Source: an uncultured cyanobacterium
Lineage (GTDB): Bacteria > Cyanobacteriota > Cyanobacteriia > CAKZMO01
DNA length: 64,000 nt
NCBI GenBank assembly: GCA_963719515.1
Contig: CAVRCJ010000001.1
Span: 32,001 to 96,000 of the forward strand
Reading direction: 5' to 3'
In this document: piece by piece, positions 29,937 through 32,416 of the stretch
How positions within the stretch are numbered: the stretch's first letter is position 1
Layout: every line of letters starts with the position of its first letter
Position numbers and translations under genes: made by a program
The notes under the pieces: generated by a model
Told to the model about the DNA's origin: nothing
The model's input: only the letters and a program-made list of their open reading frames with translations
Database searches by the model: none

Positions 29937-30200
29937 GTGAAGGAACGCTATAGTTTCTCTGACCCTTGTATGCCCAATGTCAGCGGTATACCCAATGTCG
30001 TCTGGGCGTACTCACAGGCAATAAACCACGTTTTGGCAACTCCAGTTTCCAACCTAGACGAAGTTTGTCTGAAGGCGTAACTAGAGCAGCTAATTGATGG
30101 GTATGCCTTAGCCAGTGCTGCAAATATCGCTGAGGACACTGCATAGTTCCAATGGTGACATCCTCCCGACGCTGATGCTACGCATACAGCGCGGGCTTCC

Positions 30201-31397
30201 TCAGTGACTCCCAGCTACTGCTGAGACATTTCCTGAGAGATTAAGGGCTTGATGTCCCACAGCCCTATTCAATAGGTTGATAGCCGCGTTGTGGTCGCGA
30301 CAGATCGTTAAGCCGCATGACGGGCAACTATGGACCCGATCGGCCAGCGTCTTTGGTACCCGCTCACCACAACCCGAGCAATCAATGCTGGTTCCGCGTG
30401 GGTTCTCAGCGATGGTCATCTTTCCAGCTTTCGCGGCTTTGAAAGAGCCTATCTCCAAGAATGTACCCCATGCGGCATCAGCGATTGACTTTGCCAGTCT
30501 GGTTCGAGCAAGTCCTTTGATGTTGAGCTTTTCATGAGCGACAACATCGTACTTTGAGAACAGCCAATCCCACACCTTAGAAAAGAAATCACGACGCTGA
30601 CGCGATATCTTTAGGTGTAGTTTGGCGATGCGATTCACCTGCTTACGCCAGCGGTTAGAGCCCTTCTTCTGTCTCGATAGCTGCCGCTGCAGCTTGGATA
30701 GCTGCCGCTCTGAGCGTCGAAAGAACTGAGGGATAGGAACGCTCTCACCGTCACTGGTAACCAAGAAATCCTTCAGCCCAACGTCAACACCGACAGACTT
30801 AGCCCTATCGACATCCGGAGTAAGCATCGGAACGGCATTGTTTTCCAGTAACAGGCTCACATACCAACCATCTGCTTTGCGAGTCACCTTGGCCGTTTTG
30901 ACAGTAAACCCATCAGGTATCGGGCGATGAAGGATTAGCTTCACCTGACCAATCTTAGGCAGGGTAATACGACTTCCATCGATGCAGTCAGGTTTCATCT
31001 GCGGGAACGTGAACGTCCTGTAGCGCCCCGCGCCTTTGAACCGAGGCTTGCCGCTACGCTTACCATTCCTATCACCTTTGATGAAACGCTCGAACGTCTG
31101 CTTTACCTGCTTCGTCACCTCCTGAAGCGCTTGTGAGTGCAAATCCTTGTACCAGGGTCGCTCTCGCTTGAGAGGTACTAGGCTAGCCTTCTGGCTGTAG
31201 TAATTAGGATTATCTTTGAGTGGCGCAAGGCTACAGGTGAGTGGGCAGGCGTTGACCGAACAGCGGTTCATCTCCCACCAGTCGAAGCGCTCAGCCAGCA
31301 ACCAGTTGTACTGTGCCCGAAGCATATCTAGCCATCGGGTCATGGTAACCGTTTGCTCAGCCGCTGGACGCAACTTGTACTGATAAGTGACTTTCAT
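30201..31397 (-). CDS. tnpB: RNA-guided endonuclease TnpB
   Basis: Start at MKVTYQYKLRP (ATG 31397). RuvC residues present in GVDVGL, AHEKLN, RDHNAA; zinc finger CSGCG...CPSCG. Confidence 0.95.
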   Translation of the reverse strand: MKVTYQYKLRPAAEQTVTMTRWLDMLRAQYNWLLAERFDWWEMNRCSVNACPLTCSLAPLKDNPNYYSQKASLVPLKRERPWYKDLHSQALQEVTKQVKQTFERFIKGDRNGKRSGKPRFKGAGRYRTFTFPQMKPDCIDGSRITLPKIGQVKLILHRPIPDGFTVKTAKVTRKADGWYVSLLLENNAVPMLTPDVDRAKSVGVDVGLKDFLVTSDGESVPIPQFFRRSERQLSKLQRQLSRQKKGSNRWRKQVNRIAKLHLKISRQRRDFFSKVWDWLFSKYDVVAHEKLNIKGLARTRLAKSIADAAWGTFLEIGSFKAAKAGKMTIAENPRGTSIDCSGCGERVPKTLADRVHSCPSCGLTICRDHNAAINLLNRAVGHQALNLSGNVSAVAGSH

Positions 31398-31404
31398 GCA
31401 ATAA

Positions 31405-31432
31405 TGATAGCATATTGACATCAGAATGACAT
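31405..31432. promoter_or_regulatory. Three TGA(T/C)A boxes at 11-bp spacing between the tnpB and RHH start codons (putative operator)
   Basis: TGATAG at 31405, TGACAT at 31416, TGACAT at 31427. Confidence 0.5.
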
Positions 31433-31613
31433 GCAGCAAATAACTATTAGAGCCGCTGACAGAGAAAAGCAGCATCTTGACAAGTATTGTGAGATGACTA
31501 AAAGAACTATCAACGATGTCCTTAGGGAGTACATCCGAAGTTTGGCCGTCTCCGGGGCATTGAGCCCCATCGACGACCGCGACTCTCATCCCGACGCTCA
31601 CCCTGACGGGTAG
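31431..31613 (+). CDS. Ribbon-helix-helix (CopG-like) DNA-binding protein
   Basis: QITIRA beta-strand, EKQHLDKYCEMTKR helix, TINDVLREYIRSL helix; divergent from tnpB and inside the element ends. Confidence 0.75.
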   Translation: MQQITIRAADREKQHLDKYCEMTKRTINDVLREYIRSLAVSGALSPIDDRDSHPDAHPDG

Positions 31614-31951
31614 AGCGCGGGGCTTCCCGTCTAGTAGCTAAAGCGGCCTCTCAGGAAATACACGCAATACGTCGGCGTGCTGCGGCATCTTTATGCGAAA
31701 TTCAAACGTATTTAAAGTCGTCCCCGAGAGAATTTTGACCTAGCCATCGATGAGCAGCACTAGACGCTCCTACACCATACAAGATGTAGAAAAGCCCAAC
31801 TCAGCCCAAGGGGCGATTAAGGCGAATAGTTAACTCTGTTACTTTTCGTTGCAGACGGTAGTCGTCAACAGTTTTCTGCAGGGTGCATCGGGCATGAGCT
31901 TGCAGACCACCCTGACTTGCAGCTACCGCTAACGATACACAAGAGAATCAC

Positions 31952-32416
31952 ATGGCTAATCCTGACCAAATCATCAATCAGATCAAACAGCTCGACGTCG
32001 ATCAGCAGCTAGCGCTGCTGTGGGTGGTCTACACCAAGATTGGAACGTCAATTACGCCTGCTGCCCCCGATGCCGCCTCACCCGCGATCGCGGGCGGACT
32101 GTTCGAGCAGGTCAAGCAGCTCGGACAGCAGGAACAGCTCGAGGCAATGCGCGCCATCGCTCAGGGAAGCGATACTACTCTGAGCCGCGAGTATGGTTCC
32201 CTCAGCGCTGAGACAAAGCTCGCGTTTTGGTACCAGCTAGCGCAGGGTATGACGTCGGGCAGCATTATTCCTATGCCTGAAGACTATTCTCTATCCAGCG
32301 AAGTCAGCCAAGCAGTAGGGACTCTAGAGTCGTCTGGGTTCGAGGAGCAGATTACGGTGCTGCGGAACGTTGCTGATGCCATGGGCGCTGCGCCTGCGCC
32401 TGGCTCCAAGGTGTAG
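31952..32416 (+). CDS. Helical carotenoid protein (orange carotenoid protein N-terminal domain homolog)
   Basis: DQQLALLW...SITPAAP, QLEAMR, SREYGSLS, KLAFWYQLAQGM motifs; no NTF2-like domain. Confidence 0.9.
   Translation: MANPDQIINQIKQLDVDQQLALLWVVYTKIGTSITPAAPDAASPAIAGGLFEQVKQLGQQEQLEAMRAIAQGSDTTLSREYGSLSAETKLAFWYQLAQGMTSGSIIPMPEDYSLSSEVSQAVGTLESSGFEEQITVLRNVADAMGAAPAPGSKV

Follow-up and report, generated by a model that had tools for sequence, protein, structure and literature searches.

A cyanobacterial IS605-family element with a divergent ribbon-helix-helix gene that probably represses its tnpB

The window analysed here, a stretch of 64,000 nucleotides from an uncultured cyanobacterium, contains a transposable element with two genes, tnpB and, divergent from it, a small ribbon-helix-helix (RHH) gene termed arc (Table 1). 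Both ends could be set to the exact base by comparison of the 15 full-length copies in the genome, at 98.1-99.6% identity. The initial annotation had placed the left end at 31642. However, TTAG precedes and TCAC terminates all 72 elements whose ends could be paired, so that the element stops at 31637 and the last five bases of the original interval (30155..31642) are target DNA. The fifth target base is variable and is a T in 63 of the 72 cases (TTTAG, including position 31642); from known TnpB biology TTAG is predicted to be the core of the TAM. The element shares with the IS200/IS605 family the subterminal hairpins at both ends, the insertion 3' of a fixed tetra- or pentanucleotide and the lack of terminal inverted repeats and of a target duplication. 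The end hairpins fold moderately better than shuffled sequences (z -1.6 and -2.0), and the guide tetranucleotides AAGC (left) and GAAG (right) would match TTAG and TCAC, respectively, according to what we take to be the guide pairing rule of IS608. The flanks are formed by a FecR-domain gene and a gene for an orange-carotenoid N-terminal domain, the latter adjoining the element as a stand-alone gene at 31952-32416 of the window. In a genome of the same genus (L211) these two genes are neighbours, 462 bp apart, and the element is absent.

Table 1. Features of the arc-tnpB element and its target (positions in the window)
Feature	Position	Strand	Details
IS605-family element, non-autonomous, with arc and tnpB	30155-31637	-	1,483 bp; ends fixed by 15 full-length copies
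Right end	30155-30199	-	guide GAAG 30199-30196, hairpin 30195-30165, TCAC 30158-30155
Predicted omegaRNA scaffold	30155-30330	-	spans tnpB 3' end and right end; placed by analogy with known TnpB systems
tnpB	30201-31397	-	398 aa; RuvC D205/E289/D368; C4 zinc finger
Predicted tnpB promoter	31404-31432	-	-35 ATGTCA 31432-31427, 17-nt spacer, TG, -10 TATCAT 31409-31404; strict scan
Candidate arc -10 TAGCAT	31408-31413	+	from sequence only; shares TA with tnpB -10; leader of ~11 nt
Predicted operator	31416-31432	+	GACAT twice with 11-bp period: 31417-31421, 31428-31432
arc, ribbon-helix-helix	31431-31613	+	60 aa; residues 1-38 RHH; tail largely left-end read-through
Left-end hairpin	31592-31621	-	DNA fold
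Left-end predicted guide AAGC	31622-31625	-	fits TTAG
TTAG target tetranucleotide, outside the element	31638-31641	-	precedes 72 of 72 paired elements

The tnpB gene is intact, as first annotated. Its product passes the Pfam cut-offs for HTH_OrfB_IS605, OrfB_IS605 and Cas12f1-like_TNB and scores 295 bits against the NCBIfam model guided_TnpB (cut-off 100). The RuvC residues lie in the motifs VGVD(205), HE(289)K and RD(368)HNAA and the zinc finger consists of two CxxC pairs (340/343 and 358/361), so that TnpB domains, RuvC triad and zinc finger are all present as in OMEGA TnpB proteins. The region predicted to hold the omegaRNA scaffold shows a z-score of -2.3, with 3 of 200 shuffles folding equally well, and a search of this region against Rfam gave no match. 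Metatranscriptome contigs from four sets (shares 0.05-0.10) contain a relative with ~90% similarity across tnpB, the match ending at 31396 and leaving arc uncovered; such contigs are uninformative on transcript starts and levels and were excluded as evidence.

The arc gene faces tnpB across a gap of 33 bp (31398-31430), and we could confirm the original description of a 60-aa RHH ORF head-to-head with an intact tnpB in an element without a transposase. Both ORFs lie within the element, but arc is not entirely inside the end hairpins, as had been stated before, since its last codons and the stop codon (31611-31613) enter the left-end hairpin. The C-terminal ~20 residues of Arc resemble the tail of the TnpA of the sister elements described below, because both genes run into the same left-end DNA. 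Taken alone, Arc scores 14.7 bits against Pfam RHH_1, below the cut-off of 20.5; of the family members, 15 out of 15 match RHH_1 with an E-value of 0.05 or better (best 2.8e-6). An ESM Atlas feature search returned RHH clusters (best 0.93), the ten best named hits all belonging to one clan. The AlphaFold2 model has a pLDDT of 86.5 with helices at residues 10-23 and 27-37, the strand being unassigned because a monomer was modelled. Its fold neighbours are PutA, NikR, CopG-type antitoxins, P22 Arc and Omega (Z 5.5, no E-value <0.001), and such low scores are expected for only 46 residues. Searching the sequences of solved structures with the arc alignment yielded no RHH match, and a large protein search retrieved just three near-identical proteins. 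Among ten hand-picked pairs of homologues, 161 of 244 substitutions in arc fall on the third codon position. Judging by the predicted fold together with this third-position bias, arc is a real RHH gene, in agreement with the earlier prediction. Like the Arc-type repressors of IS605 elements it is a stand-alone RHH protein of <200 aa, encoded within IS605 ends and divergent from tnpB across the promoter. The ORF is also conserved among the copies, being intact in all 15 full-length ones, which are too young (98-99.6% identity) for this to be informative on selection.

Relatives were gathered by whole-genome searches; within the class, a profile built from 15 members matches 158 of 401 genomes. 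We examined 130 non-redundant related RHH loci, drawn from the loci that these searches returned and from 80 further hand-listed hits, with more than 200 lower-ranked matches outside the sample. In 63 of these 130 loci a divergent tnpB start lies within 110 bp. A tnpA was found within ~1.5 kb of the RHH gene in none of the 130 loci, using a profile that detects the helper TnpA of this genome at 185 bits. Callable start codons were present in 55 unique arc-tnpB pairs (median gap 37 bp) and absent from seven loci. Among the remaining RHH loci are arc-only mini-elements as well as chromosomal RHH genes. Three mini-elements (L026:1000-1700, L027 and L029) carry arc and an inverted-repeat box with a structured-looking stretch instead of tnpB, and the first of these is present in two copies in its own genome. 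A chromosomal RHH paralogue (L031, L034 and part of L037-L050) has, in many genomes of one family, a fixed place next to a gene for a flavoprotein that looks zeta-carotene-desaturase-like by eye, and is a candidate for a domesticated relative. In two further loci (L003:1044-1508, L004:1477-1938) the RHH domain is fused to a longer C-terminal part and the gene is divergent from a periplasmic-binding-protein gene that appears molybdate-uptake-like by eye. The notion that arc is a non-functional passenger or a chance frame would fit the subthreshold Pfam score, the youth of the copies and the one copy broken by an insertion, but is largely refuted by the third-position bias among homologues, the spread of the family over the class, the fixed position opposite tnpB and the RHH fold, and we give it only the slightest chance.

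Pairing of the ends yielded 15 full-length copies with the RHH ORF, a further copy whose ORF is interrupted by an insertion, three elements bearing tnpA and 53 gene-less elements, while the RHH ORF itself has 18 matches in the genome. At C13:118817-120433 arc is truncated by a 129-bp insertion and tnpB is intact. The three tnpA-bearing sisters (1,785-1,806 bp) possess the same ends and carry a divergent Y1 tnpA, intact in two of them, in the slot of arc. Their TnpA scores ~140 bits against PF01797, and their TnpB is 94-98% identical to that of the arc form. The element was thus correctly recognised as non-autonomous: no transposase lies inside it, and a Y1 TnpA of the IS200/IS605 type with matching ends, sought at the suggestion of the initial annotation, is available in trans. 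In lacking a transposase, in its hairpin ends and tetranucleotide target, in its helper in trans and in its gene-less mini-copies, the arc element resembles tnpB-only IS200/IS605 elements and PATE-like mini-elements. It differs from the tnpB-only non-autonomous elements, which we take to be the IS1341 group, in carrying an additional regulator gene where the transposase would be. The 53 gene-less mini-copies are 396-398 bp long, on average 99% identical, and have the same TTAG target and ends as the full element. They contain an internal TATGAT hexamer and ~240 nt unlike tnpB (for example C1:96746-97142, 397 bp), and are possibly stand-alone omegaRNA-like units using the same TnpA.

A strict promoter scan of the window puts 6 nt between the tnpB -10 hexamer and the ATG. 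The same spacing applies to the relatives: TAnnnT precedes the start codon of tnpB by exactly 6 nt in 40 of 40 gaps of up to 40 bp, with start codons chosen from the protein alignment and independently of the -10 motif. With so short a distance the tnpB mRNA is predicted to be leaderless, in agreement with the earlier conclusion that a 33-bp gap implies leaderless or overlapping transcripts. The candidate arc -10 was missed by the strict scan, and TAnnnT is present at its offset in 19 of the 40 short-gap relatives; the predicted arc promoter is thus weaker in evidence than that of tnpB. The predicted operator consists of two GACAT boxes. The second of these coincides with the predicted -35 of tnpB and extends into the start codon of arc. 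Of 19 double boxes in the genome, 17 belong to arc copies, and the second box is altered in one of the 18 arc copies. For a comparison of the gaps we used a set of 52, from which one broken arc and two mis-called starts had been removed and in which the start for the window's own copy was set manually. Direct repeats of at least 5 nt with a period of 10-12 bp are present in 17 of the 52 gaps versus 2.5 (maximum 6) in 100 shuffles. Inverted repeats are present in 26 versus 15 (maximum 22), a count given little weight since the overlapping -10 hexamers are palindromic themselves.

The boxes appear to change together with the protein. A GAC[GA][GT]C box accompanies 17 of 20 proteins with x-T-R at RHH residues 3/5/7 versus 1 of 31 others tallied, and a TATATC-type box all 9 S-F-R proteins, both patterns having been picked by eye. 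In addition, 37 variable RHH columns were scanned with no preselection, column identity being compared with gap similarity and corrected for the other columns. Gap similarity is best predicted by residues 5 (0.42), 3 (0.41), 28 (0.33) and 27 (0.22). Residues 3, 5 and 7 of the model align with residues 9, 11 and 13 of P22 Arc, which we take to be base-contacting, while residues 28 and 27 presumably mark the start of helix B. As arc adjoins the gap, shared descent inflates the covariation of boxes and residues, and a phylogeny-independent pairs test was underpowered, as just two of its pairs lay on branches with good support (median p = 1). The gap boxes covary most with residues 5 and 3, that is, with the predicted DNA-reading strand.

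Arc-like ORFs with TnpB were first noted in 10.1101/2023.11.20.567912, where a figure legend also reports them with Cas12k. A 2026 preprint by Moon, Zedaveinyte, Wiegand and Sternberg (10.64898/2026.09.24.754181) describes Arc repressors of IS605-family transposons, including elements with only arc and tnpB. It reports ChIP-seq of Arc on the transposon promoter, repression of a reporter and loss of these effects upon mutation of the beta-strand or the site, and also some Arc homologues without specific binding. The element in the window resembles these examples in its small RHH gene, which faces tnpB across a predicted bidirectional promoter, and in a predicted site that overlaps the tnpB -35. 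The main examples tested in that preprint are clostridial elements in which arc and tnpA share one side, whereas in the cyanobacterial loci examined the two genes alternate in one slot and are never found together (0 of 130). The strings 'cyanobacter' and 'leaderless' do not occur in its main text, so that the published Arc proteins may be another clade, and its supplements may include cyanobacterial members. The predicted leaderless tnpB and the residue-box covariation are features of the cyanobacterial set that the main text of the preprint does not mention. Outside subscription papers, our literature search found no title or abstract opening on cyanobacterial arc-tnpB elements or leaderless tnpB. 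By analogy with the experiments on other IS605 Arc proteins, and from the covariation of the boxes, it is likely that Arc regulates its own element.

Two other roles for Arc were considered. Arc made by the passengers might repress the tnpA of the helpers in trans and so limit transposition of the whole family. There are 18 arc copies to 3 helpers, tnpA repression in arc-tnpA elements has been proposed (10.64898/2026.09.24.754181), and the helper gap contains a single GACTT, a single GACGC and the palindrome TGATATCA; the double box GACAT-N6-GACAT, however, is missing from all three helper promoters, and we regard this role as unlikely. Alternatively, the main function of the RHH protein could be that of an antitoxin, binding the TnpB protein so that guide and target cannot pair; such a role was proposed from AlphaFold cofolding for an archaeal RHH-TnpB clade (PMC10691335). 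Many of the fold neighbours of Arc are indeed antitoxin DNA-binding domains, and Arc also has a weak RelB match (14.9 bits versus a cut-off of 50), and in the archaeal RHH/MazE-TnpB loci the RHH gene likewise adjoins tnpB. According to that report, though, the archaeal genes are co-oriented and immobile, have a rearranged catalytic site and form a proposed toxin-antitoxin pair, whereas here the genes are divergent, the element has 18 copies and TnpB has the canonical D368. Many relatives, moreover, measure 41-48 aa and extend no more than a few residues beyond the RHH core, and the tail of Arc is left-end read-through, so that a conserved segment for toxin binding is lacking. A single Arc class also occurs beside distant TnpB clades, and two of the arc-only mini-elements (L026, L027) have no tnpB. 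An antitoxin role is therefore quite improbable, and repression of tnpB remains our preferred reading.

The initial annotation had drawn a parallel to type V-K CAST loci, whose small divergent repressors the arc-tnpB architecture might predate. The parallel itself is already published (10.1101/2023.11.20.567912, Fig. S2 legend; 10.64898/2026.09.24.754181, discussion). As described in PMC9938897 and PMC12416283, CvkR, Arc_1 and Arc_2 are likewise small regulators divergent from a TnpB-derived effector with a leaderless mRNA in cyanobacteria, but they belong to the MerR, 56B_RHH and RHH_5 families and reside in a Tn7-like element with an inactive nuclease. The start-to-start distance is ~160 bp for the CAST Arc_1-type genes examined versus the median of 37 bp for arc-tnpB. 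We compared 50 cas12k loci (30 + 20) of the 81 matches listed, and the divergent gene was MerR-like (by eye) in 31, Arc_1-type in 8, RHH_5-type in 2 and other or unclear in 9. RHH genes lie next to cas12k in 10 of the 50 loci, and the three that were scanned match 56B_RHH and RHH_5. No gene at the 50 loci matches the arc family profile (best 7.1 bits), and neither of these two Pfam families matches any of 15 arc family members. The hhalign comparison of the arc family with the CAST RHH profiles gave probabilities of 13% and 33% (E 0.002 and 0.0005), and no cas12k match was found in this genome. Arc thus falls outside the CAST regulator families Arc_1 (56B_RHH), Arc_2 (RHH_5) and MerR, and its neighbour is tnpB rather than cas12k in a Tn7-like element. 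An arc-tnpB layout ancestral to the divergent repressor-cas12k pairs of these CASTs could explain why both are cyanobacterial and divergent with a leaderless effector gene (10.1101/2022.05.13.491168), the RHH fold used by both in some cases, the residual profile similarity and the placement of TnpB-linked and Cas12k-linked Arc-like proteins in one tree (10.1101/2023.11.20.567912, Fig. S2 legend). It is nevertheless very unlikely: besides the differing families and the predominance of MerR-like genes, the closest arc relatives away from TnpB loci are RHH genes on cyanobacterial chromosomes, and PMC9938897 concludes that CASTs probably gained their regulators on several independent occasions. 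The comparison leaves a common fold and layout with no sign of descent, and the results weigh against deriving CAST repressors from arc-tnpB elements.

Within the genome, the arc and tnpA forms show consistent differences in tnpB only as far as codon 11, and further polymorphisms are common to both. Among 18 tnpB copies of both forms, 32 of 41 informative sites are third positions. The four-gamete test was failed by 409 of 820 pairs of informative sites, with mosaic haplotypes, and this mosaicism points to recombination among copies, with assembly mixing as a possible alternative. In a FastTree phylogeny of TnpB all four tnpA-bearing TnpBs included from this genome are sister to arc-bearing TnpB, and Arc proteins of the K-T-R class, with a TGACGGC-type box, accompany TnpBs from a number of separate clades. 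The same genome contains two further arc-tnpB families whose RHH strands differ (C15:9773-10072, three copies; C10:496374-496673, nine copies). Their boxes, TTGTAGCA and GTAGGCA, again have an 11-bp period and occur only in their own copies within the genome, three and nine times, and both families have a tnpA-bearing sister TnpB there. Solo tnpB families without arc, such as C10:347735-349137, have a predicted leaderless start and carry a strong inverted repeat of the type TTAAGGAG...CTCCTTAA directly upstream of its -10 hexamer. A more tentative interpretation is that the left cassettes, either arc with operator and leaderless promoter or tnpA, are interchangeable by recombination at the tnpB start, and that each Arc reads its own box by a simple beta-strand code (for example K-T-R for TGACGGC repeats, S-F-R for TATATC/GATATA, Q-T-R for GACAT). 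We consider this possible, though still short of probable. The genome would then hold three orthogonal repressor-operator pairs, each nuclease family limiting its own dose. Were this true, repressor-bearing passengers could exceed the tnpA helpers in number (18:3, 9:1 and 3:2), and the Arc proteins would provide a natural set of 45-residue orthogonal repressors.

Building on the observed anatomy, copies, same-end helper, coding signal and predicted fold, we consider it quite probable that the element is an IS605 passenger which borrows TnpA and whose Arc, on the two GACAT boxes, represses the predicted leaderless tnpB transcript and probably that of arc as well. TnpA from the 1.8-kb sisters would recognise the common hairpins and insert the element after TTAG. 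RNA polymerase would initiate tnpB at the ATG from the extended -10, and arc from the overlapping divergent -10. Two Arc dimers, on boxes one helical turn apart, would cover the tnpB -35 and the arc start, and their occupancy would cap the dose of active nuclease, whatever number of copies draws on the repressor pool, as well as that of the omegaRNA, which would be processed from the tnpB transcript. TnpB-omegaRNA would cleave vacated TTAG sites, with the element being restored by recombination, and recombination close to the tnpB start codon may swap the arc-promoter and tnpA-promoter cassettes. The principle of Arc repression is already in print for other elements, and new here are the cyanobacterial example and its details: the cyanobacterial set adds exact predicted starts, predicted operators linked to Arc residues by a candidate code, and an apparent exchange of cassettes within one genome. 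A tiny repressor that likely restrains the nuclease would offer a DNA-cutting selfish element a route to many copies.
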